64,000 nucleotides of DNA from Escherichia phage vB_EcoM_IME392: the sequence record MH719082.1. One strand, written 5' to 3'. Under the pieces are notes generated by a model. It was not told the DNA's origin. It searched no databases and saw only the letters and a program-made list of their open reading frames with translations. How positions within the stretch are numbered: position 1 is the stretch's first letter; the number at the start of each line of letters is the position of its first letter. Position numbers and translations under genes: made by a program. Positions 1 through 25,140 of this stretch are shown in pieces.

Positions 1-931
1 TCACATCCAGAGTTGATCCTGGTTGGAACTCTCGACCAACATCTTCCATTACGTATTCTAGAATACTGTGATCGCTATTATAACGAGAAGCAGCATCTTC
101 AAGAGTAGCGATGTAATGCTGGAAGTAGGTACGGATCTTATACCAGGAATTAAGTGATCCGAGATCAATCGTAGTTACCGGAGCTTCATTAATGTCGTCA
201 ACATAAGCTCGGATATTACTTACCTGCTTCTTGATGTTCGACACTTCCGGATACCAGTGGAGATCATCCGTCATCACCACATAGTTGCCCATATCTACTT
301 TGAGCATAGTTGCGATGATTTCCTGGATGATCGTGAACTCCACCAGATTAACGTTAGTCAATCCCCAGATTAGATCATTACTACGGTTGAATACCGTGCA
401 GTCCAGACCACCATTACGGTACTTAAACGATAGAGCAATGTTGCAGATCATATCTGCGGTATTGATGCTGCCGATGCTGTTTACCAAACCTACATCAGAA
501 TCACGGCTGGGATCGTGAATAGTAGCCACGCACTTACGGTTACCCAGGTCAGAACGGAGGCGGTCTGTTACAGTCTGGAGTTGATCGTAGTTATACAGAC
601 GCTCACCGTAAGCACCACGCCAGGTAACCATATCATCGCTAAACATCTTAGCGCGAGGAACCATAATCGACATCCAGTTATCGATTGCATAGCCACCAGA
701 CAGTACCCACAATACTTCCCCCATAATTCCGAGGATATTGTCTTTACGTTCTGGATGAGCCATCCAACGATTAATCGGATTACTTAACTCAACTACAGCA
801 TGACCGATGGATACTACCGCCGAAGAGTTAACAGAAGTTCTGGACTTCTGCAACTCACCAGCCTTATCCATAGTATTGATGCTGTTAACCAGGATTTCAG
901 TATTACTGTTACCGCGAATTACCGAGATCAT
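1..931 (-). CDS. Deoxypyrimidine-monophosphate hydroxymethylase / thymidylate-synthase-family enzyme (partial; 3' end beyond window start)
   Basis: Own translation of the minus strand from ATG 931..929 (overlaps upstream TGA as ATGA). The frame stays open to position 1. ThyA-family motifs are present: ...DLGNRKCVATIHDP..., catalytic-Cys region DMICNIALSFKY (T4 gp42-like rather than ThyA PCH), and LDCTVFNRSNDLIWGL (RSxD motif). It is absent from the ORF track because it runs off the window. Confidence 0.6.
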   Translation of the reverse strand, partial: MISVIRGNSNTEILVNSINTMDKAGELQKSRTSVNSSAVVSIGHAVVELSNPINRWMAHPERKDNILGIMGEVLWVLSGGYAIDNWMSIMVPRAKMFSDDMVTWRGAYGERLYNYDQLQTVTDRLRSDLGNRKCVATIHDPSRDSDVGLVNSIGSINTADMICNIALSFKYRNGGLDCTVFNRSNDLIWGLTNVNLVEFTIIQEIIATMLKVDMGNYVVMTDDLHWYPEVSNIKKQVSNIRAYVDDINEAPVTTIDLGSLNSWYKIRTYFQHYIATLEDAASRYNSDHSILEYVMEDVGREFQPGSTLDV

Positions 932-1662
932 TTAGAGTCCTTACGCACTGAATCAATAGACTTAACTGCAGAGGACAGTAACTCCAGACGGGCCTCCTGA
1001 GGGATCATACCAGATGGCTCATTCAGGATCATAATACCTTTACCAGTATTAGTAAAACGAGCTGTGATTGATCCAGGATACACCGGATGATTCAGAGTTA
1101 CAGAATTACACAACGCAGCACCGAATCGCTCCTCGTAGGCACGCATAGTTACCTTAAGGAGAGTAGAACTGACTGCTACAGAGTATTCCGGATCAACAAC
1201 ACGGAAGTTATTGTCCTCAATACTCTTATCCTTCGTATTGAAGAACAGAGTCATGTTATAATAATCAATAGACTCGTTACTGAGACGTAATGCCTCATCA
1301 CGAGCTTCCTGGCTAGCAAACATACTGTTATGCAGCAGGAAGTAAACGTACGAATCGAATACCGCACGATCACTGACGATCAACTCGCCACGATTGTAGG
1401 CATCCTTGAACATCTGAGTTCGCTGACGAATAAGACGCAGCTGGAACTCTACCGCTTCCATAGGATCTTCCACAGCTAAGCGCAGAATATCCATATGGGA
1501 TGTTACTCCCAGAGGAAGATGGTCACGAGTCTGTACTGCACGGAAGGTACATTCGGTTGATTCTTCCCAGCCTTTAGCCAGAGTAGATTTACCGGTACCC
1601 TGCGCACCAGACATAATTACACTGTAGCCTGGGATACTATAGTCTCTCATTATTCTCTCCAA
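928..1662 (-). CDS. P-loop nucleotide/nucleoside kinase (dNK-like); candidate hydroxymethyl-nucleotide or hydroxymethyl-DNA kinase
   Basis: Walker A GAQGTGKST. ELIVSDRAVFDSYVYF resembles the ERS-xxSDRYxF motif of dCK/dGK-type deoxynucleoside kinases. Start/stop are coupled to the hydroxymethylase gene. Confidence 0.55.
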   Translation of the reverse strand: MERIMRDYSIPGYSVIMSGAQGTGKSTLAKGWEESTECTFRAVQTRDHLPLGVTSHMDILRLAVEDPMEAVEFQLRLIRQRTQMFKDAYNRGELIVSDRAVFDSYVYFLLHNSMFASQEARDEALRLSNESIDYYNMTLFFNTKDKSIEDNNFRVVDPEYSVAVSSTLLKVTMRAYEERFGAALCNSVTLNHPVYPGSITARFTNTGKGIMILNEPSGMIPQEARLELLSSAVKSIDSVRKDSK

Positions 1663-1739: not shown

Positions 1740-2711
1740 CTAGCTAAACTTATACCAGCGAGGTCTCATACGGATCTCGTGATTCAGTTTATGTAGTTTC
1801 GAGAATTCGCAGAATGAGTTGGTGAACATCTGACGAGTATAGAACCGCTCATCCTCCGGCATGAAGTGGAACCATTTCTCCGGCTCCCATGCATACCCGA
1901 AATGAGCACATATCTCTTTGATGTTCTGATACCACCATTCCACGAACATCTGGTAGCCGCAAGGAGGGTTCTGGTCATTAAGCATGTACCATACCCCATC
2001 CTGCGTCCCGGGTCCACATACGATAGCATCGTTATCTGTGTACGCAGTCTCTTTAGAGTAGGACATAGTTGCCCAGCATTGATATGCCATGAACGGACCT
2101 AATCCAGATACCTGTAACAGATGCTCGATGGCCTCGGTAGCGAACGGAGACTTCCATGCCAGTAAGATAGGATCACTGTAGGTCTTCACCAGATAGGCTC
2201 TGGCAGCTACACTGTACTTAATATCCTCTGGACATACTTCATTAGCCATCTTAACTGCTGTGCTAAGGAAGTAGGCATTTGATTGCTGTGGAGCAGTGAA
2301 CGGAGGACCATCCTCATAACGACGTAGCTCTTCACGACCCATGTTATGTATGTCGTCATAGCTCATCTCATAAAGAGGAAGGACTCTGCGGAAGCGATCC
2401 ATATATGAATCACCACGGTTTATCATCTGGAAGAGTACCACGTTAAGCGCCTTACTCTCCCAGCTTAGGGAATCGTTCTCCAGAATGTTCTTGATAGCCC
2501 ATACTGTTTCACGATCGTGCTTACGGAACACGTTAGTGAATTTAAACTTACTAATCCACTTATGTTCTGTCCACGGAGGAGGTAGCTTAAGTATCTCCTT
2601 CTTATAATAAACCTCAGTCCGCTCGCGGTTATACTCCACATACTCACGTAGCTCCTCGGGATTTATCATCCCGAGTAACCCGTCGAAGTGCAAACCTAAC
2701 GGTTTAGACAT
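1740..2711 (-). CDS. Hypothetical protein of the DNA-modification module (323 aa, Trp/Tyr-rich)
   Basis: ORF with an upstream promoter-like element and an RBS. Its position lies between the kinase and the BGT-like gene. No motif is recognised by eye. Confidence 0.45.
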   Translation of the reverse strand: MSKPLGLHFDGLLGMINPEELREYVEYNRERTEVYYKKEILKLPPPWTEHKWISKFKFTNVFRKHDRETVWAIKNILENDSLSWESKALNVVLFQMINRGDSYMDRFRRVLPLYEMSYDDIHNMGREELRRYEDGPPFTAPQQSNAYFLSTAVKMANEVCPEDIKYSVAARAYLVKTYSDPILLAWKSPFATEAIEHLLQVSGLGPFMAYQCWATMSYSKETAYTDNDAIVCGPGTQDGVWYMLNDQNPPCGYQMFVEWWYQNIKEICAHFGYAWEPEKWFHFMPEDERFYTRQMFTNSFCEFSKLHKLNHEIRMRPRWYKFS

Positions 2712-3790
2712 TAAAGAATACCTTCTTTGGTAAAGTAGTCTATTACTTCATCCTGAAGTTCTTGTGCGTAATCCTTGCGCAGATATAGATTCTCATACTG
2801 ATGTTTCAGCAGAGCATCACGATCTTTCAGTTTCTCTGCAATCTCCGCATTACTGGAGACGATCAGAGGAGCCAGTAGCTCTTCGGGGACGCCGCTCCGG
2901 ATTATTGTTCCAGCAGCATCTTTATCCACCAGCATCAGAGTACCAGAGCTCAGGTATTCGTAATAACGGTTAGGTGGGCTGGTATAGAACGAATTACTGG
3001 AGTTCCAGTCTTCGATAAGCAGTACCGCTGCATATTTAGCCACTTCATCCAGCATCTCTGACAGCTTAAACTTAGGCAGCCAGTTAATCGGAGCAGCAGG
3101 TCCCAGCCACTTACGTTCTTTAGGATCCAGCTCTTCCCAGTTTTCCTGCTCGTAGCCGTCAAATCCTGCAAGACCACCAGTATGTTTAGCGATGGACATC
3201 TGAGCTTTGTAGCTCGGCACCGACATAAACAGTTCCAGACCATCTTGCTGGGAGAAGTACTGAGTGAACTTATGGAAGCGGCCTTCACGAGCAGCACCGT
3301 AATACAGCAGGCTATTGTCCGGCTTATCTGACGATCCATAGCGAGGCTTACGACCAGGAACGTAGGTAAGACGGTTCCAGTTAATGTGATGATAGTTCTC
3401 TTCGCTAGGAGAATACTGATTACCCCAGGAAGTACGTTCAAATGCTGCTACAACTTTAAATACAGTAGCTGCGGTGATGTGTCTCCACTGCGGACCCTGG
3501 ATACGCATCTTAGACGAGTAATCCTGTCCAATCCAGTAGAACTTAGCTCCGACATCTGCCTGGTCTACCCAGAACTTATACATCTCGTCGCGGAACTTAC
3601 AGAAGGTAGGAACACCATTGATGGCGATAATCACGTCATATTTAGTGCCATCTTCCATAGCCTTAACGAACTTAGGAGTATCGTCCAACAGGTCAGCTTG
3701 AAGTCCGTAGGCTAACCAGGAAGCCAGAGTATTACTGGCAATGATGGATTTATCGCTGCATGGCGAAAAGTTAGTTACTGCAATCTTCAT
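2711..3790 (-). CDS. DNA beta-glucosyltransferase-like glycosyltransferase (T4 BGT-like, GT-B)
   Basis: N-term MKIAVTNF resembles T4 beta-gt MKIAIINMG. LLYYGAAREGRFHK matches T4 BGT DVIYGGSFRSGQRE. AVLLIEDWNSSNSFYTSPPNRYYEYLSSGTLMLVD matches BGT ALIIGDKNYNDNFITLRVWETMASDAVMLID. Length is 359 aa, against 351 aa for T4 BGT. RBS GGAGAAATTAAACATG. Confidence 0.6.
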   Translation of the reverse strand: MKIAVTNFSPCSDKSIIASNTLASWLAYGLQADLLDDTPKFVKAMEDGTKYDVIIAINGVPTFCKFRDEMYKFWVDQADVGAKFYWIGQDYSSKMRIQGPQWRHITAATVFKVVAAFERTSWGNQYSPSEENYHHINWNRLTYVPGRKPRYGSSDKPDNSLLYYGAAREGRFHKFTQYFSQQDGLELFMSVPSYKAQMSIAKHTGGLAGFDGYEQENWEELDPKERKWLGPAAPINWLPKFKLSEMLDEVAKYAAVLLIEDWNSSNSFYTSPPNRYYEYLSSGTLMLVDKDAAGTIIRSGVPEELLAPLIVSSNAEIAEKLKDRDALLKHQYENLYLRKDYAQELQDEVIDYFTKEGIL

Positions 3791-3815
3791 GTTTAATTTC
3801 TCCGTAGGCTGTCAC

Positions 3816-3848
3816 AATTTAACAGCCTTTTAGCTCATCAAAGAAGCG
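3816..3848 (-). promoter_or_regulatory. Conserved promoter-like element (copy 2) upstream of BGT-like gene
   Basis: CAATTTAACAGCCTTTTAGCTCATCAAAGAAGCG. Overlaps the 3' end of the GT2 gene. Confidence 0.5.
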
Positions 3849-4872
3849 AGTTAGCTGATGCCCAGCTCAGCCAGTTATCGTTGAGATCGGTCAGGTAGGA
3901 GTAATCCTTATTCAGACCGAATACAGTACGGTTAGTTCCGTCGAACTTCATTATACCAGCGCCAGGAGCTCTGATGATTGCATCTTCCGTAGCCAGACAA
4001 TATTCTTTCAAGTATTCCTGGATGTTGGGACGAATACGACGGAAGGAACTATCTGCCGAGTCATAGTGGAACATATCTGCGCAGTGCCACTGTACGTAGG
4101 ATTTATCCGGACGGCTGAGTAGTTCATTACGGGTAACCATATCTTTAGGAGAATATCCCAGCTTAGCTACAGTGACTTCGTGAATACCTCCACCATTAGA
4201 CGAAGTATCCATCAGCCAGTTTTCGTCCCAGTAGAACGAAGTACCAGTACCAGTTACCTGTCCAACCTTCCAGCCCATCGCCATACCTTTAAACAACAGG
4301 TAGCAATCTTCTCCTACGGTCAACTGTTGGAAGGTTATATCGAACAGCCAGAACATCTTCTCACTGGTCTTGACCATGATACCGAGGTCAGTGGCCGGAG
4401 CAGTGTTATTATGTGACTGACGATCGCATAGTTCAACAATCTTGTAGTTACGATTCTTGAAGCTACGGACGAACGCCATCTCAAACTCAGATCCCTCGAA
4501 GTCTATAACGGAACGGTCCAGATGGAAAATATTATCTGCGAACCAGACATCATCATCCACGAAGTAGCAGATGTCTGGACACCAGTTCTGATCCTCCATT
4601 AAAATCCATGCCTTATCAAGAGCATGAGCTCGGATTCTTCCGATTACCGGATTATCGTACTTAGGACGATGCCAGAAATTAAACTGCTCGTCCCCACCGA
4701 ACTGCTCTTCCAGAACTGCCTTATCTTCTTCGGAGGCATCCTGCATAAAGTAGAAGAAACGATACTCGATAGAGTCGTCAGTCTTCTTAGCATCTTTGAA
4801 CGACTGAATCTGACGGAGTACCGACTTCATACGATGATAGGTTGGGATGATAAAAGCCACTTTGGTAGTCAT
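3838..4872 (-). CDS. Family-2 glycosyltransferase (GT-A fold)
   Basis: N-terminal VAFIIPTYHR (GT2 IIPTYN-type motif) and DXD motif YFVDDDVWF. Confidence 0.65.
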   Translation of the reverse strand: MTTKVAFIIPTYHRMKSVLRQIQSFKDAKKTDDSIEYRFFYFMQDASEEDKAVLEEQFGGDEQFNFWHRPKYDNPVIGRIRAHALDKAWILMEDQNWCPDICYFVDDDVWFADNIFHLDRSVIDFEGSEFEMAFVRSFKNRNYKIVELCDRQSHNNTAPATDLGIMVKTSEKMFWLFDITFQQLTVGEDCYLLFKGMAMGWKVGQVTGTGTSFYWDENWLMDTSSNGGGIHEVTVAKLGYSPKDMVTRNELLSRPDKSYVQWHCADMFHYDSADSSFRRIRPNIQEYLKEYCLATEDAIIRAPGAGIMKFDGTNRTVFGLNKDYSYLTDLNDNWLSWASANSLL

Positions 4873-4878
4873 ATTTAT

Positions 4879-5490
4879 TTATCCAATTTGACGAACTAAG
4901 CGAAACCCTTCGGCGTACGGCCACTGGGCAGAATATCCACGTAAGGTGGCTAGAGCTAAGATACTCTGGGTATCTCGGTCTGACTTAATCTGGGAGTCGA
5001 ATCGTCCCATAGCCTGGCACTTACACTCAATATCGTCCTTATTCAGACGCTCGAAGTAATTAGGTTCCATCTGACCGAACTGGGTCAGGGACTCGGCATA
5101 CTCATATTCCAGGATAAGCCAGTTATACGCTCGGAGAGCTACACGAGCAGCATGATTAACTAGTTGATGGTCCTGGTGTAGGCTACTGAACGGAATATAG
5201 ACTACATCCGGCCTGATTTTAGCAACATAGTCCGCAATATCCTTAGCCAATTGCGGAATATCCTTCTGAGTCATACCATCGCCTGTGGAGGCATCGTTAC
5301 GCTCCAGGCAATGTACTTCTTTGATATTCGGATAGACACCGAATGCTGCTTCGGCTTCACCACGACGGGTCTCGTCCGGAGCAGTTACTTCGAGGATGAA
5401 AAATTGGTCGTCGCGGAATTTGCTCATAATACCTCCGCAACCCAGAATCTCATCATCGTGATGTGGGCTGATAATCAATCGTGACTTCAT
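4879..5490 (-). CDS. PIG-L/LmbE-family de-N-acetylase (GlcNAc deacetylase-like)
   Basis: Signature SPHHDDEILGCGG near the N-terminus and the second zinc-ligand motif HQDHQ. The 203-aa size is typical of MshB/BshB/LmbE proteins. Confidence 0.75.
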   Translation of the reverse strand: MKSRLIISPHHDDEILGCGGIMSKFRDDQFFILEVTAPDETRRGEAEAAFGVYPNIKEVHCLERNDASTGDGMTQKDIPQLAKDIADYVAKIRPDVVYIPFSSLHQDHQLVNHAARVALRAYNWLILEYEYAESLTQFGQMEPNYFERLNKDDIECKCQAMGRFDSQIKSDRDTQSILALATLRGYSAQWPYAEGFRLVRQIG

Positions 5491-5553: not shown

Positions 5554-5588
5554 CACCTTAACAGCCTTTTAGGTCATCAAACAGGAGG
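5554..5588 (-). promoter_or_regulatory. Conserved promoter-like element (copy 3) upstream of PIG-L gene
   Basis: CACCTTAACAGCCTTTTAGGTCATCAAACAGGAGG. A hairpin/terminator follows at 5497..5532. Confidence 0.45.
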
Positions 5589-6959
5589 AGTTTCCTTAGC
5601 CAAGAATACTTTAGGTACAAAGATCTTGAGGAACCCGAATAGAATACACAATACCCCAATCAGTACCGGAACAGCCGATACAGCTACCAGAGTCTTCGTT
5701 ACAGTTACTACGTCACCACCTGCCCAGTTAAGTGCAGCAGCAACTACACCCATGCTTACAATCCAGAATACACGAGTTCTAGGAGCGGTCATGGACTCTA
5801 CCGTAATACCTGCTGAGTCATGACCTGTAATAAAGAACAGAATCACAGACACGAGGGTAATTACTGAGAATATCCATCCGCCTGGGAAATTAGCCAGAAG
5901 CTGGAAGATATCCTGAGCACCATGTTGCAAACCGGCTACACCGAATACGGTAAACCATACGTTACTGATAATGGTAGGGAACAGTACACATCCCAGGATC
6001 AGTTCGCGAATAGTACGGCCGTAAGAGATACGTGCCACAAACGCTCCGACGAATAATGCCCAACCTACCCAGGCTGCATAGTAAGCATAAGGCCAGCTAG
6101 CCAGCCATTGCTTCTCTTCAGCAGTACTGCCAATGTTTACCGACATAGGAATAATCTGGAGCAGATAGCTGCCAGAATAGGTGATGGTCTTCCAGAGGTA
6201 TTCAAAGAATGTACCACTTACAGCAACGAATGCCATAATAGATAGAGCTACGATTACATTATATCTGGATAACCACTTAACCCCACGATCGACACCAGTT
6301 ACGGCACTAAGTACAGTGCCCAGAGTCAGGAGTGCGATAATGGTGTAAGGACCAACATCCACACCAAGGAACTCTTTAAATCCAGAACTGATCGGGCCTA
6401 CTGCGTAGACGAACGACAGGGTTAAGCCTATGATGGTCGAGAAGAGTAAGCTTATCGTATTAAGGTTATTCAGAGTTCGGGACTTGAATAACTGATTAAG
6501 CGGACGGTCTTCACCACGTACATGCAGTAAGTACCCGAATGCCACCCCTACGACTGCATACACAGCCCATGCATTAAGTCCCCAGTCAAAGAAGGTAGTT
6601 ACCATATTCTGACGTTCGGACATACCCTCCTGATGATGGTACATAGGTTCGAGTACGCCATAATAAATCATGGATACACCCATACCGGTACTAAACATCA
6701 TAGAGTAATAGGTAAAGCGATTGTATTTCGGAGTACCTTTACCCAGCTTAATGTTACCATGTTTGCTGAATACAAAGAATGCCAGGAACGCCAGGAAGAT
6801 CAGCGAAGACCAGGTAAATATGAATCCATACTGAGATATAAATACAGACTTACTCCAGTCCATTACAGCACCAAACTGGGTGGGAGCAAACATAATGGCG
6901 AGTACAATACCCACCGTTACCAGCACCGTCCCCCAGGTAACTACCTTTGAATCGGACAT
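5577..6959 (-). CDS. BCCT-family (betaine/carnitine/choline) secondary transporter
   Basis: 460-aa polytopic membrane protein. N-terminal FSKHGNIKLG motif and the BCCT signature WPYAYYAAWVGWALFVGAFVARISYGRTIREL (cf. W..FYWAWW.SW.PFVG.FIARIS.GRTIRE). Confidence 0.85.
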   Translation of the reverse strand: MSDSKVVTWGTVLVTVGIVLAIMFAPTQFGAVMDWSKSVFISQYGFIFTWSSLIFLAFLAFFVFSKHGNIKLGKGTPKYNRFTYYSMMFSTGMGVSMIYYGVLEPMYHHQEGMSERQNMVTTFFDWGLNAWAVYAVVGVAFGYLLHVRGEDRPLNQLFKSRTLNNLNTISLLFSTIIGLTLSFVYAVGPISSGFKEFLGVDVGPYTIIALLTLGTVLSAVTGVDRGVKWLSRYNVIVALSIMAFVAVSGTFFEYLWKTITYSGSYLLQIIPMSVNIGSTAEEKQWLASWPYAYYAAWVGWALFVGAFVARISYGRTIRELILGCVLFPTIISNVWFTVFGVAGLQHGAQDIFQLLANFPGGWIFSVITLVSVILFFITGHDSAGITVESMTAPRTRVFWIVSMGVVAAALNWAGGDVVTVTKTLVAVSAVPVLIGVLCILFGFLKIFVPKVFLAKETPPV

Positions 6960-6962
6960 TGA

Positions 6963-7871
6963 TTATTCCTCAATTACGCCCTTAGCGATTAACTGGCGAC
7001 GGACGTATGCGTAGCCAGCAGGTGAAGTAGCGAGGACGATGTCCGCACTACGGAAGTTGGTTTCGATATAGAAGCACTCCTGAAGATCCCGAGTACAGAA
7101 GAGCTCAGTACTCATCATACCCTCGCGTACGTTACATGCATCTGCAACGAATTGCGCAACATCTTCGAAGTGGTCTACCGAATGACTATAGCCGAATCCA
7201 CGGGCATCAGTAGATATAACGTAGTTAGGGCAGTACGGAGTGAAGTCAGTATCTTCGTAGGATTTACCCTGGATAGTGAAGATATCTGCATAGTCCTTGA
7301 ACCCGCTCGGGCTAACCAGAAGATCCCAGGCAACTACCATACCATCGATAACATCTGCCTGAAGTACCAGAGAGGTAGTATATTCGTCCGGTGCCTTATC
7401 GCAGACCAAAATTGGGGAGTCTCCCAGAAGGTCCGACATAGTGCCCGCACCCTTGCCCCCGTGAACACGATCACGGCGTACAAACGCCTCCTGAGGCCTC
7501 TGGTACAGTCTGAACGACGGTACAATCAGCGAATCAGGCAGAGTTCCCAGGTTAGCTTCGGAGCGAAGGCAGGATAATTGGTCAGCTTTAGACCACGTAC
7601 TTTCGATAGCGTGCAGATCGTTACCGATTTTGGTATAGATATAGCTTTCCGGATTACGGCACTTACCCTGATTCAACTCTTCGATAACCGAGTCGAAATA
7701 AGGAAGTCGTACTGATCCCTCACGAGGAGCAGTTAACGCTACTGAGCCATGCTTGGTATGATCCTGATCAACTACCATAACCTGGTCCAGACTTACACCC
7801 ATCTTAAGAATCTGGGATAATGTAGCTGCCGTGTGATTAGTGCAGCCAATCATCAAATCTAACTTCTTCAT
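6963..7871 (-). CDS. Hypothetical protein (302 aa) of the modification module
   Basis: ORF tightly packed between the transporter and the methyltransferase, with a promoter-like element upstream. No confident family assignment. Confidence 0.45.
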   Translation of the reverse strand: MKKLDLMIGCTNHTAATLSQILKMGVSLDQVMVVDQDHTKHGSVALTAPREGSVRLPYFDSVIEELNQGKCRNPESYIYTKIGNDLHAIESTWSKADQLSCLRSEANLGTLPDSLIVPSFRLYQRPQEAFVRRDRVHGGKGAGTMSDLLGDSPILVCDKAPDEYTTSLVLQADVIDGMVVAWDLLVSPSGFKDYADIFTIQGKSYEDTDFTPYCPNYVISTDARGFGYSHSVDHFEDVAQFVADACNVREGMMSTELFCTRDLQECFYIETNFRSADIVLATSPAGYAYVRRQLIAKGVIEE

Positions 7872-7972: not shown

Positions 7973-8713
7973 TTACTTTAATTCGGAGAGATCTGCGATC
8001 TTCACCTTAGCTGATACATCCCAGATTCCTTCACCAAATCCGGTATCTTCCAGCAGCTTAGGCACTTCACGTTTCTGTACCTTAGATTGCTCGTACTTAA
8101 GCAGAGGAATATTACCGGTCTTATCTGATTGATCCCACAGATAAGTAGCAGCACCGATGTTATCGAACAGTGCGAGATCTGGATTAAACTGGGTAAGGAG
8201 TCGGCAGTCCCAGTGAGACTTATGTTCCTCGAAAGGATTAGTTTCCGTGCCACGCTGACGATACTCATAGTTAGGAGTACCGATCACGATTTTAGCCTTA
8301 GACTGGAATAGCTTAGACAACACCATAAGCCCGTCTTCGCTATCCAGATGCTCCAACACATCCAGCCAGATAATAGTGCCGAATTTATCCAGCTCTTCAA
8401 TAGGAAGATCTTTCAACAGTTCAACGATATTGCAGATATAGATATCGCTATATACATTTACACTGCCTTTGATGTAGTCTTCGCAGATGTCCAGACCTGT
8501 AATCTGACCATCGAATCCTGCGTTACGGAGAGCAAGACCAATTTCTCCACGACCTAATCCCATATCCAGGATTGGCCCGGAGATAATTTCGTTACGGAGC
8601 ATCCATTGGAGAAAGTGCTTCTGGACTAAGTAGGAGGTGCCTCCGTTGCCCAGTGAAGCCTTCGTGACCTTAGTACCAGGAACGAAATTACACTCGATAT
8701 GTTTACCAAACAT
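7973..8713 (-). CDS. SAM-dependent methyltransferase (class I Rossmann)
   Basis: Motif I-like ILDMGLGRGEIGLAL (cf. VLDLGCGTG), and an acidic residue after beta-2 in GLDICED. Confidence 0.55.
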   Translation of the reverse strand: MFGKHIECNFVPGTKVTKASLGNGGTSYLVQKHFLQWMLRNEIISGPILDMGLGRGEIGLALRNAGFDGQITGLDICEDYIKGSVNVYSDIYICNIVELLKDLPIEELDKFGTIIWLDVLEHLDSEDGLMVLSKLFQSKAKIVIGTPNYEYRQRGTETNPFEEHKSHWDCRLLTQFNPDLALFDNIGAATYLWDQSDKTGNIPLLKYEQSKVQKREVPKLLEDTGFGEGIWDVSAKVKIADLSELK

Positions 8714-8817: not shown

Positions 8818-10065
8818 TTACAGTTTACCGATCATCTTCTGAATCATCTCGTCAGAAGTCTGATTCTCTACCTTAGCACGACGTTCTTGCAGATTAGCAA
8901 TGCGGTCGTCGTGATCTTTCTTACGTAGCATGCTGATGCTACGGCTAAGGCAGGAATTCAACACTTCCTGGGTAATACCGAGAGCTTTGATGATCTGAGC
9001 ATCAGACTTATCCTGCATAACCAGCTCGCCCACTTTAGGAAGAATCTGGTAAATCTCGATGTCTCGGTCAATCTTCTTAAGAGACTCAGTCTTATGGACG
9101 GAGAATGCCTGATTGTAGAGAGCCATCGTGACTGCAATCCAGTCGCGAATACCCATCGTCACCAGTTGACCATTGTAGGCTACCTGGATACGATGCGAGC
9201 GGTTCATGTAAGCAATATTCATGCATGCTTCGTGAACCTCGTCCATATCGATGGTCCTGATACGGGGAGCCTTCATTACTCGGATATAGATCTTATCCTT
9301 GGACATGTTCTTGACCAGGATCTTACCTTCTGATAACCACTTATTCAGGAACCCGATGCGAGGAGTAATTACCTCACCAGACCCGATGATGTCGATGGTG
9401 TCGGTATTGACGCGAGTTACCTTAAGGGTAAGGCCTAAGCGACCTACACCAGTTTCCCATAAGGACTTAAGGTCTGACTTACTCGGCACGATATCATACC
9501 CGTACTGAGCCTTAAGCAGATTATAATCGTCATGCTTGTAGGCTTCCAGCAGACTCTCGTAAGTGAATGCTGGGATACGGGACTGAATACCAGTAGCCCA
9601 TGAGAAGGTACCATACATCAGAGCATACGGAATAGGCACTGGAAGGTATGCGTATTCCATCTTCTCTTCACCTTCAACCTGCGGAACATAGTCCGCTAGA
9701 CCGAAGTAGTATTCTGCACGATCTTCGTTCAGGCCAACCTTCGTGTAACGAGGAGCAGCACCAGGAACTTCTTCCAGCAACTTAACGCCGAAAGATCCCT
9801 GACCATCAATAGCACCGATGCGAGCAAGACGGGAAATAGTCCCATCGATAGACTGGTCACCGAATGGGTGTAGCGACTGAGTTTCTGAGATAGCGCTCAG
9901 AGTCCCCACCAGCTTCCCACGAGCAATGCTATTCAGAGCCATGTAGATACGGCGCTGGGCAGGAATCAGGCCATCGATACCGGGAACTACACGATGAAGA
10001 GCACAATACACACTGTAGTCAGTGTAGTTCTTGGTGATGAATTCAGAAATCTTTACCTGTTCCAT
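8818..10065 (-). CDS. Type II DNA topoisomerase medium subunit (T4 gp52-like, GyrA-type cleavage domain)
   Basis: 415 aa, immediately downstream of the large subunit. The size and position match the T4 gene 39/52 arrangement. Confidence 0.65.
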   Translation of the reverse strand: MEQVKISEFITKNYTDYSVYCALHRVVPGIDGLIPAQRRIYMALNSIARGKLVGTLSAISETQSLHPFGDQSIDGTISRLARIGAIDGQGSFGVKLLEEVPGAAPRYTKVGLNEDRAEYYFGLADYVPQVEGEEKMEYAYLPVPIPYALMYGTFSWATGIQSRIPAFTYESLLEAYKHDDYNLLKAQYGYDIVPSKSDLKSLWETGVGRLGLTLKVTRVNTDTIDIIGSGEVITPRIGFLNKWLSEGKILVKNMSKDKIYIRVMKAPRIRTIDMDEVHEACMNIAYMNRSHRIQVAYNGQLVTMGIRDWIAVTMALYNQAFSVHKTESLKKIDRDIEIYQILPKVGELVMQDKSDAQIIKALGITQEVLNSCLSRSISMLRKKDHDDRIANLQERRAKVENQTSDEMIQKMIGKL

Positions 10066-10067
10066 AA

Positions 10068-12053
10068 TTACTCCTTAAACAGACCGTAGTCTTCTAACAG
10101 TTGGCGACGAGCACGAGATGAGTACAGCAACTTACGAGCGGCATCGAGATGCTCTTCATTATCATCGTAGGTTACCTGGATAAGACGGCGAGATTTCGAG
10201 TTAATGATGAATTGCTCAGTTTCTTCTTCGGTATATGACCCGAGTCCCTTACGACGTTCAACATAGCACTTATCGAAGTCGATCTTATCCTTCTCGTCAG
10301 CGTAGTAGAACTCGGTCTTCTTACCATTCTTAACTACATAGAACGGAGCTTCGAGTTTATACAGACGACCATCTTTAACCAGCTCTGGAGCATGGATAAG
10401 GAAGATTGAGCTAATGAGGTTACTGATGTGCTGACCATCAACATCAAGGTCGGTCATAATGATGATCTTACCGTAACGAGCCTTATCTATGTCAAACATC
10501 TGGCCCATACCACACCCGATAGTATTGATGATCGCCAGCAGCTCTGGGTTATTCACGAATTCCATGATATCCATGGAAGCCGAGTTACGCATCTTACCGC
10601 GAAGAGGAAGCACCGACTGATACTCATTACGCAACTTGATGATATTACCAGAAGCAGACGGACCCTCTGTGATGAACAGCTCACGAAGATCCCAGCGGTC
10701 GGACGGAGATTCGTAGATCTTCGCCATGTCACCATCCATAGCGGCCTTACGGTGATCATCACCCATCACCAGCTTAGACTTAATGAAGTCCATGTTGGAG
10801 AGTTTATTCAGGCTAGCTTTGTAAGCCAGGATCTTGGCAATCAGAGCATCAAAGAATTGCTTATTCTTCTCGTATACCAGGCTGAAGTAGAATGTGAGCT
10901 GACTCAGGCATTCTTTCTCGTAGAAGAAGTACTCGCCATAATAGTCGTAATCGTTGATTTGCTCATCATTCAGCATCAACTTATTCTTAGCCATGATTTC
11001 CCAGTCGCTCCAGGACATACCGAGGCCAGTTAACTTCTCCTTAGTCTGCGAGGAGAATGCTGTACGATAGCTGGAGAAGACGTTAGTGAACACGATCAAT
11101 CCCAGCTTAGCATCACCAACAGTGATAGCAGAGTTAACTTTATTCAGCATACCGCCGAGCGCTCTCGTGACCAGCTTCTCATGCAGACCACCATGCGGGT
11201 TATTGATCAAGTTGATCATGTCTACATGGGAGTAGGACATATTCTTATCAGAGTAGCCCAACTCACCAGAGAAGGTCAGACGATCGTTGAACGAGAACTC
11301 GTACTTGACTGTAGTATCGAGGAACAGCTTCTCATTCTCTGCAACATCACGACGAAAATCCCAGGTAGCCAGAGCTTCACCATTAACGGTGATAGTTGCA
11401 TCACGACCAATCAGGGAGATCTTCAGAGGAACAGTATCCACATCAGACCAGATGCTGCGGTACAGAGTCGCATCAGGCACCATGAAGACTGCTGTGGAGA
11501 AGTCGGTAGCCTTTAACGTCTCGAGCACTTCGTCTGGGAAGCCATCGTCGTGAAGATCATTCAGATCATTGATCACTCCATCGATTTCCATAACACCACG
11601 GCGGAATCCGAGGACATAGAACTGACCTGGCTCCATAGGGATGTGTGCCTTATCTCCCTGCATTACGCGACGGATTACAACGAATCGCTCGGACACTGCG
11701 TTAACAGCGGAGCTACCTACGCCATGGGTACCAGAGGTAATTTCACGGTTATCGCCCAGCTTAGAGCCAGCATGCAGATCTGTTACAGTAGAGAACAGAA
11801 TAGATTTAGACGGATCTTCCGGATCAGCGTAGATAGGAATACCACGTCCGTTATCGGTAACCAACTTGTAGGCTTCACGGTTAATGATCTGCACTAGGTT
11901 AGCATAACCATTAAGCAGCTCGTCCTCCGCATTATTGATTATTTCCTGGAGAGGATGAGTGTAGTTAATCGGGTCACCGAGATACATGGATACGTTCTGA
12001 CGAACGTTATCAGGGTAACGCAATCTTGTGATTTCAATAGCATGTTCTGACAT
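10068..12053 (-). CDS. Type II DNA topoisomerase large subunit (T4 gp39-like, GyrB-type ATPase + TOPRIM)
   Basis: GHKL ATPase motifs EIINNAEDE, DNGRGIP and GTHGVG. TOPRIM IIMTDLDVDGQHI. Confidence 0.85.
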   Translation of the reverse strand: MSEHAIEITRLRYPDNVRQNVSMYLGDPINYTHPLQEIINNAEDELLNGYANLVQIINREAYKLVTDNGRGIPIYADPEDPSKSILFSTVTDLHAGSKLGDNREITSGTHGVGSSAVNAVSERFVVIRRVMQGDKAHIPMEPGQFYVLGFRRGVMEIDGVINDLNDLHDDGFPDEVLETLKATDFSTAVFMVPDATLYRSIWSDVDTVPLKISLIGRDATITVNGEALATWDFRRDVAENEKLFLDTTVKYEFSFNDRLTFSGELGYSDKNMSYSHVDMINLINNPHGGLHEKLVTRALGGMLNKVNSAITVGDAKLGLIVFTNVFSSYRTAFSSQTKEKLTGLGMSWSDWEIMAKNKLMLNDEQINDYDYYGEYFFYEKECLSQLTFYFSLVYEKNKQFFDALIAKILAYKASLNKLSNMDFIKSKLVMGDDHRKAAMDGDMAKIYESPSDRWDLRELFITEGPSASGNIIKLRNEYQSVLPLRGKMRNSASMDIMEFVNNPELLAIINTIGCGMGQMFDIDKARYGKIIIMTDLDVDGQHISNLISSIFLIHAPELVKDGRLYKLEAPFYVVKNGKKTEFYYADEKDKIDFDKCYVERRKGLGSYTEEETEQFIINSKSRRLIQVTYDDNEEHLDAARKLLYSSRARRQLLEDYGLFKE

Positions 12054-13373: not shown

Positions 13374-16139
13374 CTACTCTTCCATAAACGTAGTTACGTT
13401 ATTGGAAAGGTAGGCACCAATTTTAGTGTTATATCTCTGGAAGGTAGGAACATGGGTAACCAGGATGATGTGGTTAACCGGAATGTCCTGAAGAGCATCA
13501 ATAGCTACGTCCAGAGTATTTACGTCCAGATTTCGCAGAGACTCATCCAGAATCAGACATCCTGCTCCCTTACTGAGGCTAATCAGCTTACCGATGAACA
13601 GTACGTCCACCAGGTTCTGTTGGCCACCAGACAGATCAGCATACGGAATTAACAGATCTCCAACTTTGTATTGAACATCGAAGTCAATCTTGATAGCTCC
13701 GTTAGCCTGTTCACGAACAGTAGAAATTACCATATCTCCACCAGTCATCATAGCAGCTACTTCTTTGAAGATAGAAGCAGTTACATCGCCGCTATTAGTG
13801 AACAGGCTCTGATACTCAACCAGTTTCTGATACTTAGGCTGGAGAATAGCCAACTGCGCATTAGCATCGTCGAGTTTCTTCTGAGCCTCGTCCATACGAG
13901 TCTTCAGACTACGAAGAGTAGCCATAGCGCCGATGGTAGAGTTGATCTCGATTAGCTCCTGCTCCAGCTTAGCCACTTCCTCTTCGAGAACCTGCACGGA
14001 AGGATAGGACTTAGTCTTACTCTTAAGCACTTCCACGTCGCTATTAACGGTATGGATCTTCTGACGAAGAGTAGCCACATCGTTCAGCAGACCGGACTTA
14101 CGTCTTAGTTCGGCTAATTCACTATTCTTAACGTTAAGCTTCTCTCTGAGTTCATCAGACTTAGGAGCCTTACTGATCTCAGCCTCGACAGCATCCAGCT
14201 TAGTAACAGATGCAGATCCTTGGGTTTCGAGATCATCCATCTTAGCTCTGATAGACTTCTCTACTTCTTTAATGTCCTCTTCCTTAAGGGACTGCTTACA
14301 GGTTGGGCACGTAGTAGGGATGTTGCGCATCTCGGTCTCGAGCTTAGTTAACTCCTTCTCTAAGCGAGTTAACTCATTAGTCAGAGATTCACTCTGATTA
14401 TGCAGTGACCGGATGTTACCTTCTACTTCAGATACCTCGGCATCCAGAGTAGTGATTTCGTCCCGGACCTTAGCGAGAGCGGAGTTAACCTCCTCTTCGT
14501 TAAAGTCAATCTTGAACGCAGCCAGAGAATCTTCCAGCATCTGGAGACTCTGTAGCTTACTGTCCAGATTACCCAGCTCACGGATCTTCTGACGAATATC
14601 ATCAATCTGTGGCAGGATTCGAGACTTATCTTCTTCCAGATTACTCACGTCCTTAAGTTTGGAGAAGTCGTGATCCTCCATGGTCTTAAGGACTTCTTCC
14701 TGAGCAGTTACCTGGGTCTGATAGTTACTGATCTCTACCTTACAGTTCTTAGCCGAGGCCTTTGCGACAGCTTCGTACTGGTTAATTACGGTAAGACCGA
14801 GCATCTTCGTGATCAGGTTAATACGTTCGTTGAATCCGAACTGGCTCAAGAACGGAGGACTATTCTGGGAACGATACAGAAGATCGAAGTGTTCGAGGAA
14901 TGGCAACATCTCCCAGAGCTTAGCTTCACGCTCTCGGATACTACCACCATCCATCTCATCACCATCAATCCAGACTCGGAAAGTCTGACCACCAGCCCAA
15001 TGGCGACTGATCAGGAATTCACGACCACCATACTCTAGCATCACTTCTACCAGAAGATGGTCTTGACCGCGTCTCACCACGTTACGAGGACTGTCGCTAC
15101 CAGTTAAGCAGTAGTTAAGAGCTCTCAGCAACGAGGATTTACCGTTACCAGTTTCGCCGTAGAGATAAGTAAGACCTCGCTTAAAGTTAAGCTCCAGCTT
15201 ATCAATACTGCGGAAGTTCTCTACCTTAATACTATTCAAGGTAAAGTTAAGGTCGAAGACCGACTCGGAACGATCAACGTGGGTAGACATCTCATCATGG
15301 ATATCTTTAAGACCCTTTGCCCGAACGACTTTGTCGATTACTTCTTCAACATCGATAGATTTAACTGAGATGCGTGAAGCATCCATCATCTGAGCTCTTT
15401 CACGAACTACCAGATGAGGGTAATTATCCATACCGGCAGGTACTTCATCTTCCCAGTACATCTTGAGGTATTTGTAGGAGTCAGACTCTACCGGAACCCG
15501 CTGCCAGGAAAGATCTTTAAGATCCAGCAGCACCAAGCTACCGTCCTGACAGTCACCCATCCCGTGAGGAATAGGTACGTTAACCGAGTGGGTATGACCG
15601 ATGCTGATAGGACGATGGATGTCACCAGCAAATCCCAGCTCATACTTAGTATCGTCGAACTCCTGACCAAACATAGAGGACAGAGTAATGTGGCCAATAA
15701 GGACATCTACTTTATCTTCGATAAAACTGAAGTCCTGGGTAGGACGCCAGTCGCTAAAGGCGACCTTACGGCCACCTAAGTTCAGGATTTTACCATCGAC
15801 ATATTCTGCCTTACCAGCGAGGATCGGCACCAGTGAGTTCTGGTAGTGATCAGCATCTACTGATTTGGAGTTAATGTCGTGGTTACCCAGAATATAATAA
15901 ATCTCGGTAAACTGCTCACCGAGGATCTCCATAAACTGGGATGTAGCGTGTGCAATTTTAGGCTCATGCTGAGCCTTATGCACTAAGTCGCCAGCGATAG
16001 ACAGACAGGTTACTTTATGTTCCCTGCCCATCTCCGCCATACGATGAGCTAAACCGATAAACTGCTTTAAGCGAAACCCTTCCGAGTTATGCTGCTGAAA
16101 TTCATGGATATGAATATCAGCTACGATCAACATTTTCAT
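13374..16139 (-). CDS. Fused Mre11/SbcD nuclease - Rad50/SbcC ATPase (T4 gp47+gp46 equivalents in one polypeptide)
   Basis: N-terminal phosphoesterase motifs DIHIH, GDLVH, GNHD, GHIT, GDIHRP and GHTH. From about aa 300 onward: Walker A GETGNGKSS, long coiled coils, zinc-hook CPTC, signature LSGGQQN and Walker B LILDE. Confidence 0.75.
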   Translation of the reverse strand: MKMLIVADIHIHEFQQHNSEGFRLKQFIGLAHRMAEMGREHKVTCLSIAGDLVHKAQHEPKIAHATSQFMEILGEQFTEIYYILGNHDINSKSVDADHYQNSLVPILAGKAEYVDGKILNLGGRKVAFSDWRPTQDFSFIEDKVDVLIGHITLSSMFGQEFDDTKYELGFAGDIHRPISIGHTHSVNVPIPHGMGDCQDGSLVLLDLKDLSWQRVPVESDSYKYLKMYWEDEVPAGMDNYPHLVVRERAQMMDASRISVKSIDVEEVIDKVVRAKGLKDIHDEMSTHVDRSESVFDLNFTLNSIKVENFRSIDKLELNFKRGLTYLYGETGNGKSSLLRALNYCLTGSDSPRNVVRRGQDHLLVEVMLEYGGREFLISRHWAGGQTFRVWIDGDEMDGGSIREREAKLWEMLPFLEHFDLLYRSQNSPPFLSQFGFNERINLITKMLGLTVINQYEAVAKASAKNCKVEISNYQTQVTAQEEVLKTMEDHDFSKLKDVSNLEEDKSRILPQIDDIRQKIRELGNLDSKLQSLQMLEDSLAAFKIDFNEEEVNSALAKVRDEITTLDAEVSEVEGNIRSLHNQSESLTNELTRLEKELTKLETEMRNIPTTCPTCKQSLKEEDIKEVEKSIRAKMDDLETQGSASVTKLDAVEAEISKAPKSDELREKLNVKNSELAELRRKSGLLNDVATLRQKIHTVNSDVEVLKSKTKSYPSVQVLEEEVAKLEQELIEINSTIGAMATLRSLKTRMDEAQKKLDDANAQLAILQPKYQKLVEYQSLFTNSGDVTASIFKEVAAMMTGGDMVISTVREQANGAIKIDFDVQYKVGDLLIPYADLSGGQQNLVDVLFIGKLISLSKGAGCLILDESLRNLDVNTLDVAIDALQDIPVNHIILVTHVPTFQRYNTKIGAYLSNNVTTFMEE

Positions 16140-24348: not shown

Positions 24349-25140
24349 TCAGTACCGAGGATCAGTATCCTGATAGTCGCGAATTAGGTCATAGACGAGC
24401 ACATCCAGACGAGTAGCATCTTCACGTTTCATGCGGGTAGGTCTGTACATATGGATACATACACAATGCTTAGACCAGACCTTAGCAGTCTGACGCTCCG
24501 TAAGTTCTTTACGGTCGATAATGTACTTCTCGAATGCGTGATAAGAGATAGGCTTTGATACTTCGACATGCTGGCACATATCGAGGAACTGCGGGTAGTC
24601 GTCAGTTAAGAAGCGACTGAATACGTCCTGGTAATAAGAGTAGTTAGGGAATTTACCACCCTGCTCCAGAGATAACGCATGAGTCTCGATCTCCTTCAAC
24701 ATCAGAGCCATAAATTCCTGATTATTGCTGGGAGAGGTCCACATGTTTATCTCGCAGTAATCTAACCGAGGGGAATAAACACGTACCTGAGTCTCGTGAG
24801 GAGTATACGTTTCGTGAGGGCTTCTGATAAAGAGAGTATCAGCATCTACATAGGAGTAACCACGAAGATCCATCATTACCTGAATCTTGAGTCGCAGATA
24901 GTCACATACAGAGGCCATCTTAGCCTTAGTTTTCAGGATATTATACGCCTTCTCCATAATAGGATCTCTGGCGAATAAATCCTGGATCATAACGCAACGG
25001 CAACCTTCGATAATATTCTCTTCGTTATCGATCACCAGTACATGATCATTAGGTCCGTATTTCTGTAAGGACTTAATGCATTCCCGAACATGGATAGGCA
25101 TTTTGGGTCCTACCCAAAGCTGGAAATAATTCTGACTCAT
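24349..25140 (-). CDS. Glycosyltransferase with DXD sugar-binding region (GT32 / Gly_transf_sug-like)
   Basis: N-terminal FQLWVGPKMP (cf. IHQIWIG). DYLRLKIQVMMDLRGYSYVDADTLF matches the D..R..L...GG.Y.D.D region. Confidence 0.5.
   Translation of the reverse strand: MSQNYFQLWVGPKMPIHVRECIKSLQKYGPNDHVLVIDNEENIIEGCRCVMIQDLFARDPIMEKAYNILKTKAKMASVCDYLRLKIQVMMDLRGYSYVDADTLFIRSPHETYTPHETQVRVYSPRLDYCEINMWTSPSNNQEFMALMLKEIETHALSLEQGGKFPNYSYYQDVFSRFLTDDYPQFLDMCQHVEVSKPISYHAFEKYIIDRKELTERQTAKVWSKHCVCIHMYRPTRMKREDATRLDVLVYDLIRDYQDTDPRY

Follow-up and report, generated by a model that had tools for sequence, protein, structure and literature searches.

We propose that Escherichia phage vB_EcoM_IME392 (IME392) probably encodes a DNA-acting glycosyltransferase of the GT-B fold that works like the beta-glucosyltransferase (BGT) of phage T4, with a thymine-derived base as its acceptor. 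The gene lies in a 64,000-nt stretch of sequence record MH719082.1, the whole of which is referred to below as the window, and its product is called the GT. The original prediction, made from the nucleotide sequence alone, had placed an open reading frame (ORF) here, and the ORF is real, starting with ATG and preceded by a ribosome-binding site:

2711..3790, minus strand: BGT-like GT-B glycosyltransferase ORF, 359 amino acids (aa), ATG start, TAA stop
3800..3803, minus strand: ribosome-binding site GGAG, 9 nt 5′ of the GT ATG, read from the sequence

A hypothetical protein of Escherichia phage vB_EcoM_IME392, encoded on a 116,460-bp contig, matches the GT at 100% identity, and a protein encoded on a 24.6-kb metagenomic contig matches it at 75%. 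Escherichia phage EP_H11 provides the sole phage record with similar DNA (93% identity across the first 12 kb of the window), and the GT counterpart is annotated there as hypothetical. The phage had also been judged to fall outside the T4 type, in agreement with a contractile tail that is not T4-type and with EP_H11 being its only close nucleotide relative.

The predicted structure of the GT shows a GT-B fold, and the nearest solved structure is BGT. The AlphaFold (AF2) model used was built on an alignment of 141 sequences, a single-sequence model with a predicted local distance difference test score (pLDDT) of 34 having been discarded. It reaches a pLDDT of 91 and a predicted template-modelling score (pTM) of 0.89, its only low-confidence part being residues 207-231, and the BFVD model of the same protein concurs with it (TM 0.96). 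In Foldseek searches of the PDB the top four hits were T4 BGT entries (E 1.6e-12 to 1.7e-10), followed by GtfC and the T4 alpha-glucosyltransferase (AGT) at about 2e-7; the two best structural matches among 48,164 chains are two known DNA glucosyltransferases. Identity between the GT and BGT in structural alignments is 14-17% (structures used for comparison: PDB 1bgt, 1c3j and 1nzd).

At the sequence level, the resemblance between the GT and BGT is genuine and above chance. Pairwise BLASTP gave 23 bits, E 0.009 and 25% identity across 211 residues, using a T4 BGT sequence that is 100% identical to PDB 1bgt_A. The Smith-Waterman score was 71, compared with 36.1 ± 5.2 for shuffled queries (n=2000, z 6.7), and none of the 2000 shuffled queries attained it. 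Alignment of the GT-family profile with the BGT sequence by hhalign gave a probability of 93.6% and an E-value of 2.2e-7 over 267 columns that span both domains. These two, hhalign and pairwise BLASTP, are the only methods that detect the relationship; the best Pfam match of the GT is a sub-threshold Glyco_trans_1_2 (E 0.023), and the sole PDB match of the phmmer and family hmmsearch searches, Rab5 (E 0.008), was dismissed as spurious. Three blocks had been put forward as aligning to BGT. The second (YYGAAREGR / IYGGSFRSGQRE) and the third (LLIEDW..SNSF / LIIGDKNYNDNF) are indeed in register with T4 BGT in the BLASTP alignment, but the first (MKIA) amounts to no more than the beta-strand at the N-terminus of a Rossmann fold, carries little information, and is not put by hhalign in the proposed register. 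The GT thus has a BGT-like fold and a BGT-like active site, yet lies outside the BGT family at the sequence level, T4 BGT itself being a member of CAZy family GT63.

The active-site argument rests on a family that was found only by exhaustive searching. A word-indexed search of 5.8 billion proteins with the GT returned two clusters only, so an exhaustive search was needed to reveal the family: HMMER against 1.84 billion cluster representatives gave 267 relatives at E<=1e-3 and 108 at E<=1e-10, and its size of at least 267 clusters at 50% identity is a lower bound. Members are mostly about 300 aa long and occur in phage and metagenome sequences. Among 50,697 phage records, tblastn with the GT found EP_H11 only, and a typical family member found only the Cronobacter S13-like and Citrobacter Ci1 phages. 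In the 141-sequence family alignment, Y163, G165, R171, R275, Y277 and E278 are invariant, and D90, Y91, W138, N139, R168, D261 and F276 nearly so, D90 and R168 each being kept in at least 90% of the sequences. According to hhalign, D90 aligns to BGT D100, the catalytic base mutated in PDB 1nzd, and the UDP-binding residues correspond as R168 to BGT R191, R275 to R269 and E278 to E272, with R171 one column off R195. Residues 207-231 form an insertion (25-30 residues) relative to BGT that is present only in the IME392 subclade. With the catalytic and UDP-binding residues conserved, the description of the gene as T4 BGT-like holds, but the idea of a copy of the T4 gene that had moved into another phage does not. 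Nor is a mosaic acquisition of the T4 function supported, since the GT belongs to a separate family that has its own conserved context and the low structural-alignment identity given above.

One could instead assume that the GT is a GT-B enzyme with a non-DNA acceptor, be it a small molecule (for instance one from which the modifying group is made), a glycan of the host envelope or a protein of the phage, and that it resembles BGT only through the shared fold. We regard this as unlikely, given that known DNA glucosyltransferases head the structural ranking, that the family is embedded in modules for DNA-base modification at most of its loci, and that a scan of 185,579 bacterial and archaeal genomes, confined to one peptide pattern, revealed no relative.

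The base that serves as acceptor had been considered impossible to tell from the window. This was too pessimistic, since three genes immediately downstream in the same operon point to 5-hydroxymethyluracil (hmU):

1740..2711, minus strand: PF18723 (HMUDK_hel) protein, clade-1 aGPT-Pplase, 323 aa (Pfam E 3.2e-35)
928..1662, minus strand: P-loop kinase, 244 aa (Pfam AAA_28 2e-9; weak dNK and thymidylate-kinase matches; PHROG 'thymidylate kinase' 1e-11)
1..931, minus strand: ThyA homologue, 3′ part, cut by the window start (NCBIfam thymidylate synthase 9e-12)

The TAA stop of the GT gene and the ATG of the PF18723 gene overlap by one base (TAATG), and the two genes are therefore translationally coupled. 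The Pfam name of PF18723 is '5-hmdU DNA kinase, helical domain'. In tblastn searches the PF18723 protein matched phage RP13 (E 5e-46) and ViI-like Ackermannviridae, one record of which is annotated 'aGPT pyrophosphorylase clade 1'. The aG/PT-PPlase1 proteins listed in the literature include ViI gp160 and, within the kinase fusion SP10 gp186, its C-terminal half (Lee 2018 Table 3, PMC5889632). We considered whether PF18723 might be the helical domain of the kinase itself rather than an aGPT-Pplase, and dropped this because both labels denote one family (Lee 2018 Table 3, PMC5889632). The P-loop kinase could be a 5-hmdU DNA kinase or an hmdUMP kinase, as judged from its profile matches.

The ThyA homologue is predicted from its sequence to be a dUMP hydroxymethylase. 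Its best PDB match is a CMP 5-hydroxymethylase (E 3e-15), and it carries the catalytic Cys together with the uracil-type Asn: at the position of E. coli N177 it has an Asn that aligns to the thymidylate synthase Asn, where the CMP hydroxymethylase has Asp. In E. coli ThyA, Asn177 confers specificity for uracil, and the equivalent Asp179 of the T4 dCMP hydroxymethylase confers specificity for cytosine. In EP_H11, which shares 93% of its nucleotides with IME392 in this region, the ThyA homologue is full-length, has Asn instead of Asp at the position that sets base specificity, and bears the annotation thymidylate synthase; a YfbR-like 5′-deoxynucleotidase adjoins the ThyA homologue both in EP_H11 and in L002, a metagenomic relative of the IME392 cluster. 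IME392 and EP_H11 have been placed among the 'RP13-like' phages (Sieskind et al. 2025, PMC12686479), for which a dCTP deaminase was noted alongside a ThyA homologue, with no dCMP deaminase, and whose DNA polymerase resembles those of YerA41, SP-15 and Carin-5, phages with oligosaccharide-modified thymidine (PMC12686479). Taken together, the Asn-type ThyA homologue, PF18723, the kinase, the YfbR nucleotidase and the RP13-like grouping point to a modified base that almost certainly derives from thymine/hmU and not from cytosine.

The GT would then not be a functional equivalent of T4 BGT acting on 5-hydroxymethylcytosine (hmC) or 5-hydroxycytosine, a reading that the original prediction had considered possible and that appears very improbable to us. 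It can draw on the facts that the closest structures, BGT and AGT, act on hmC, that a CMP hydroxymethylase is the solved structure most similar to the ThyA homologue, and that Cronobacter phage S13, which is T4-like, has a member of the family. It is opposed by the Asn where CMP/dCMP hydroxymethylases carry Asp, by PF18723 and the kinase, which belong to thymidine-hypermodification systems, by the dCTP deaminase listed in the literature, which feeds dUMP (PMC12686479), and by a Pfam survey of the operon in which neither a dCTPase nor a dCMP hydroxymethylase was seen.

A similar picture emerges from the family elsewhere. We counted neighbours within 6 kb at 70 IMG/VR loci with a family member, which form 49 groups at 80% identity. 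A ThyA homologue was found near the GT in 28 groups, PF18723 in 26, and one or the other in 34; a radical SAM-SPASM gene and a family-A DNA polymerase were each present in 21, an HD/YfbR nucleotidase in 16 and a P-loop kinase in 14. The uracil-type Asn is present in 42 of the 43 GT-linked ThyA homologues. At several loci from uncultured phages (L004, L006 and L007/L011/L012), genes for ParB_N, Tet_JBP and the GT are contiguous:

L004, 6454-8984: ParB_N + Tet_JBP + GT triad
L006, 2529-4993: ParB_N + Tet_JBP + GT triad
L011, 6891-9201: ParB_N + Tet_JBP + GT triad

A terminase gene follows directly after the triad in L006, and two small ORFs further on in L011. ParB-associated phage Tet/JBP enzymes have been demonstrated to act as thymine dioxygenases that make 5hmU in DNA (PMC13229309); the triads match this ParB-dependent class, and each looks like a phage version of base J synthesis with a GT-B enzyme as the transferase. 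The family adjoins both ThyA and ParB + Tet/JBP loci, and therefore stands beside both known routes to hmU.

The GT is thus most likely a post-replicative sugar transferase acting on hmU or a derivative of it, and the question is which of the two. Among the neighbouring ORFs examined at the triads, no kinase, aGPT-Pplase, radical SAM or other modification gene was recognised, and for this reason we prefer hmU itself: transfer to the 5-hydroxymethyl group is our tentative choice, held with somewhat less than even confidence. Another possibility, which we find doubtful, is that the GT acts on a hydroxyl-bearing linker, the kinase activating 5-hmdU in DNA and the clade-1 aGPT-Pplase or another operon enzyme adding the linker; the dihydroxypentyl-uracil of SP-15 and the serine-derived chain of ViI would be the models. 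The coupling of the GT and PF18723 genes with the kinase adjacent favours such a linker, as do the positions of PF18723 and radical SAM genes no more than two genes from the GT (16 and 18 of the 49 groups, respectively) and the grouping of the IME392 polymerase with those of SP-15, YerA41 and Carin-5, in which thymidine carries a linker, phosphate and sugars (PMC12686479). The compact triads speak against it, as does the lack of any Pfam match to a clade-2 aGPT-Pplase among the nine operon proteins. Clade 2 is an amino-acid:DNA transferase, and the role of clade 1 is not established (PMC8989533).

As to the sugar, the original prediction had assumed glucosylation, but the donor need not be glucose. 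The genes upstream of the GT give another indication:

4879..5490, minus strand: PIG-L / LmbE-family GlcNAc de-N-acetylase homologue, 203 aa (Pfam PIG-L 6.7e-14; NCBIfam BshB1 weak)
3838..4872, minus strand: 344-aa protein, candidate second glycosyltransferase (GT-A-like motifs only)
5577..6959, minus strand: BCCT (betaine/carnitine/choline) transporter, 460 aa, full-length (Pfam BCCT E 1e-92)
6963..7871, minus strand: 302-aa orphan-family protein (no Pfam/PHROG match; four clusters only)
7973..8713, minus strand: SAM-dependent methyltransferase, 246 aa (Pfam Methyltransf_25/23/31; L077 homologue 51% identical)
24349..25140, minus strand: DXD-type putative glycosyltransferase, 263 aa (Pfam Gly_transf_sug 5.5e-4, below cut-off)

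The gene order PIG-L, 344-aa family, GT, PF18723, kinase is kept in IME392 and in two metagenomic relatives of its cluster, L002 (GT 75% identical) and L077 (GT 39% identical). Pairs of a GT-B enzyme and a PIG-L/LmbE deacetylase are well known as PIG-A/PIG-L, MshA/MshB and BshA/BshB, and by analogy the pairing suggests transfer of N-acetylglucosamine (GlcNAc) followed by deacetylation to glucosamine. The retention of PIG-L next to the GT across three diverged lineages makes it probable that one of the sugars is GlcNAc, later converted to glucosamine. The accessory genes vary around this core, the BCCT transporter and the 302-aa protein being shared by IME392 and L002 and the methyltransferase by IME392 and L077. 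L002 and L077 have in addition a phosphatidylserine-decarboxylase-like protein, an ATP-grasp protein, a second 344-aa paralogue and a DXD-type GT, in the following stretches:

L002, 1956-5860: accessory genes
L077, 3831-7962: accessory genes

Neither the phosphatidylserine-decarboxylase-like nor the ATP-grasp protein turned up among the proteins of the IME392 operon. The DXD-type GT of IME392 is located about 20 kb from the cluster; it matches L077:3831-4616 by BLASTP (E 1e-17), the L077 counterpart sitting within the modification cluster, and its L002 homologue is 43.6% identical. Such variation suggests combinatorial tailoring of one core modification.

Starting from what has been shown, namely the fold, the conservation of the catalytic residues and the gene neighbourhood, we infer the following scheme, including its DNA substrate, its hmU acceptor, the sugar donated and the succession of steps. 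The ThyA homologue would make 5-hydroxymethyl-dUMP, which would be incorporated in place of dTMP. After replication, the GT would bind a UDP-sugar in its C-terminal domain via R168, R171, R275 and E278, and D90 would serve as the general base for an inverting transfer to a hydroxyl of the modified pyrimidine in double-stranded phage DNA. This hydroxyl could be that of the 5-hydroxymethyl group, or one on a side chain installed via the kinase and the clade-1 aGPT-Pplase. The PIG-L-type enzyme may then deacetylate GlcNAc to glucosamine, giving a cationic sugar, and the 344-aa protein, the DXD-type GT, the methyltransferase and the 302-aa protein may decorate the sugar further. In its boldest form, which we put forward as a speculation with the odds against it, the family would be the missing phage enzyme that glycosylates hmU directly in DNA, matching with a GT-B fold the JGT of kinetoplastids, and would start a new amino-sugar hypermodification of thymidine in IME392, in which GlcNAc on hmU would become glucosamine and would then be extended, methylated and possibly joined to a quaternary amine imported by the BCCT transporter.

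Several points weigh against a BGT-like enzyme with a thymine-derived acceptor. BGT was not returned by phmmer of the GT against all PDB sequences at E<=10, nor by hmmsearch of the PDB with the GT-family profile; no BGT-type Pfam model matched the GT or any of its 141 relatives, and PHROGs and NCBIfam gave nothing specific for the GT. For the Asn-type ThyA homologue, the activity of an ordinary thymidylate synthase is conceivable in principle, and the P-loop kinase has no match to the Pfam 5-hmdU DNA kinase model. The coupling with the aGPT-Pplase and the presence of the kinase are explained no less well by a side-chain acceptor than by bare hmU, and the donor may be a sugar other than glucose. 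Searches with the GT and a second member found no family member in RP13, SP-15 or YerA41, an absence that speaks against the linker reading too, and a hidden Markov model (HMM) search of the RP13 region around its PF18723 gene gave none either. Cronobacter phage S13, which belongs to the T4-like Straboviridae, encodes a clear family member, gp057 (HMM E 5e-43); the acceptor in S13 is more likely to be cytosine-derived, so acceptor specificity may vary inside the family. The literature searched yielded no biochemical or mass-spectrometry data on IME392 DNA. As a separate observation, the S13 gp057 gene (L074, 4776-5627) is located between uvsY and uvsW and is annotated as hypothetical.

Compared with T4 BGT, the GT differs in the 207-231 insertion, in a thymine (hmU) rather than hmC context and in being encoded by a non-T4 myovirus. 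Related described enzymes are the GT-B DNA glycosyltransferases from metaviromes of Pyle et al. (GT53, GT66 and GT94), whose models are T4 BGT-like (bioRxiv 10.1101/2023.12.21.572611 / Cell Rep 2024) and whose putative catalytic Asp matches D100 (bioRxiv 10.1101/2023.12.21.572611). The GTs mined by HMM in that study adjoin ThyS in 28% and 5mYOX in 10% of cases, and those tested act on 5hmC made by a C5-methyltransferase and TET (bioRxiv 10.1101/2023.12.21.572611). By description, the level at which the two sets were compared, rather than by sequence, the IME392 GT differs in being tied to PF18723, a kinase and PIG-L. A survey of pelagiphages has also mentioned, with no further study, a putative glucosyltransferase near TS and aG/PT-PPlase1 (PMC9599517).

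Among phages with hypermodified thymidine, ViI, M6, SP10 and PhiW-14 have clustered genes for a dUMP hydroxymethylase of the ThyA type, a P-loop kinase and a protein of the aGPT-Pplase family, comparable to the predicted hydroxymethylase, the kinase and PF18723 in IME392, their 5-hmdU being modified in DNA after replication (Lee et al. 2018, 2022). They attach amino acids or polyamines via a clade-2 aGPT-Pplase and without a glycosyltransferase, whereas in IME392 a clade-1 protein alone was seen, along with two or three putative GTs and a deacetylase. SP-15, YerA41 and Carin-5 are similar in that a thymidine derivative of theirs bears sugars (N-acetylhexosamine, HexNAc, among them in Carin-5) and that they encode GTs and a protein resembling GlcNAc deacetylases (PMC12686479), but their GTs match the GT model at the generic GT-B level only (BFVD E about 1e-8). 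Base J synthesis in kinetoplastids (JBP1/2 and JGT) proceeds from thymine to hmU in DNA and then to glucosylation, the same logic as in the triads. The GT of IME392 may work like JGT, though it is not a member of that family: JGT has a GT-A fold as opposed to the GT-B fold of the IME392 GT family, and hmU in IME392 would come from a ThyA homologue before replication rather than from a dioxygenase. Finally, PIG-A/PIG-L, MshA/MshB and BshA/BshB act on lipids or small molecules, whereas the acceptor in IME392 would be DNA.

New are the definition of a sequence family of BGT-like enzymes with ties to hmU pathways, the presence of such a GT in a culturable coliphage, and a conserved core of GT and deacetylase that points towards an amino sugar. 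Hypermodified phage DNA withstands restriction enzymes and other nucleases, and the enzymes involved have yielded widely employed tools, T4 BGT being one that serves to map 5hmC. Chemically, sugar-bearing thymine derivatives are known from SP-15, YerA41 and Carin-5, and in the literature searched the transferases that act on their DNA were not identified. The IME392 GT is a concrete candidate for such a transferase in an E. coli phage, with catalytic residues that can be mutated, and its several hundred phage and metagenome relatives mark hmU-based glycosylation that proceeds via pre-replication ThyA or post-replication ParB + Tet/JBP. Should the GT act on hmU, it might be put to use for labelling 5hmU in the way that BGT is used for 5hmC; if the modification is an amino-sugar hypermodification, it could be dissected genetically in a culturable E. 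coli phage.

The remaining genes of the operon add further detail. All genes from about 12,050 down to 1 of the window are on the minus strand, those farthest upstream being:

10068-12053, minus strand: topoisomerase II subunit
8818-10065, minus strand: topoisomerase II subunit

The 344-aa and 302-aa neighbours are orphans that have no PDB or Pfam match. The 344-aa family has the invariant motifs R14, D106-D108 (DDD) and G187-E188-D189-x-Y191, which resemble GT-A motifs; searches with the 344-aa protein found only close relatives and gave no Pfam, PDB or TAGT-profile support, and its identification as a TET-associated GT (TAGT) was unsupported (hhalign 1.5%). In the 47-nt gap between its gene and the GT gene, just upstream of the GT ribosome-binding site, there is a 6-bp inverted repeat (3807-3827; GGCTGT ... 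ACAGCC in the minus-strand reading) with a 9-nt loop and no T-run after it. The BCCT transporter, a presumed importer of quaternary amines, is encoded amid the DNA-modification genes of the operon; its L002 counterpart is 89% identical and it is absent from L077.

Two observations concern other parts of the window. A single ORF of 921 aa at 13374-16139 (minus strand) combines an Mre11-like metallophosphoesterase (residues 1-185) with a Rad50/SbcC-like ATPase that has a zinc-hook match, parts that are ordinarily two proteins. In the tail module, a 952-aa protein at 43944-46802 (plus strand) has a C-terminal lysozyme/endolysin-like domain (PHROG endolysin E 2e-39, residues 720-920) and is probably a tail-associated lysin or a tape-measure fusion.

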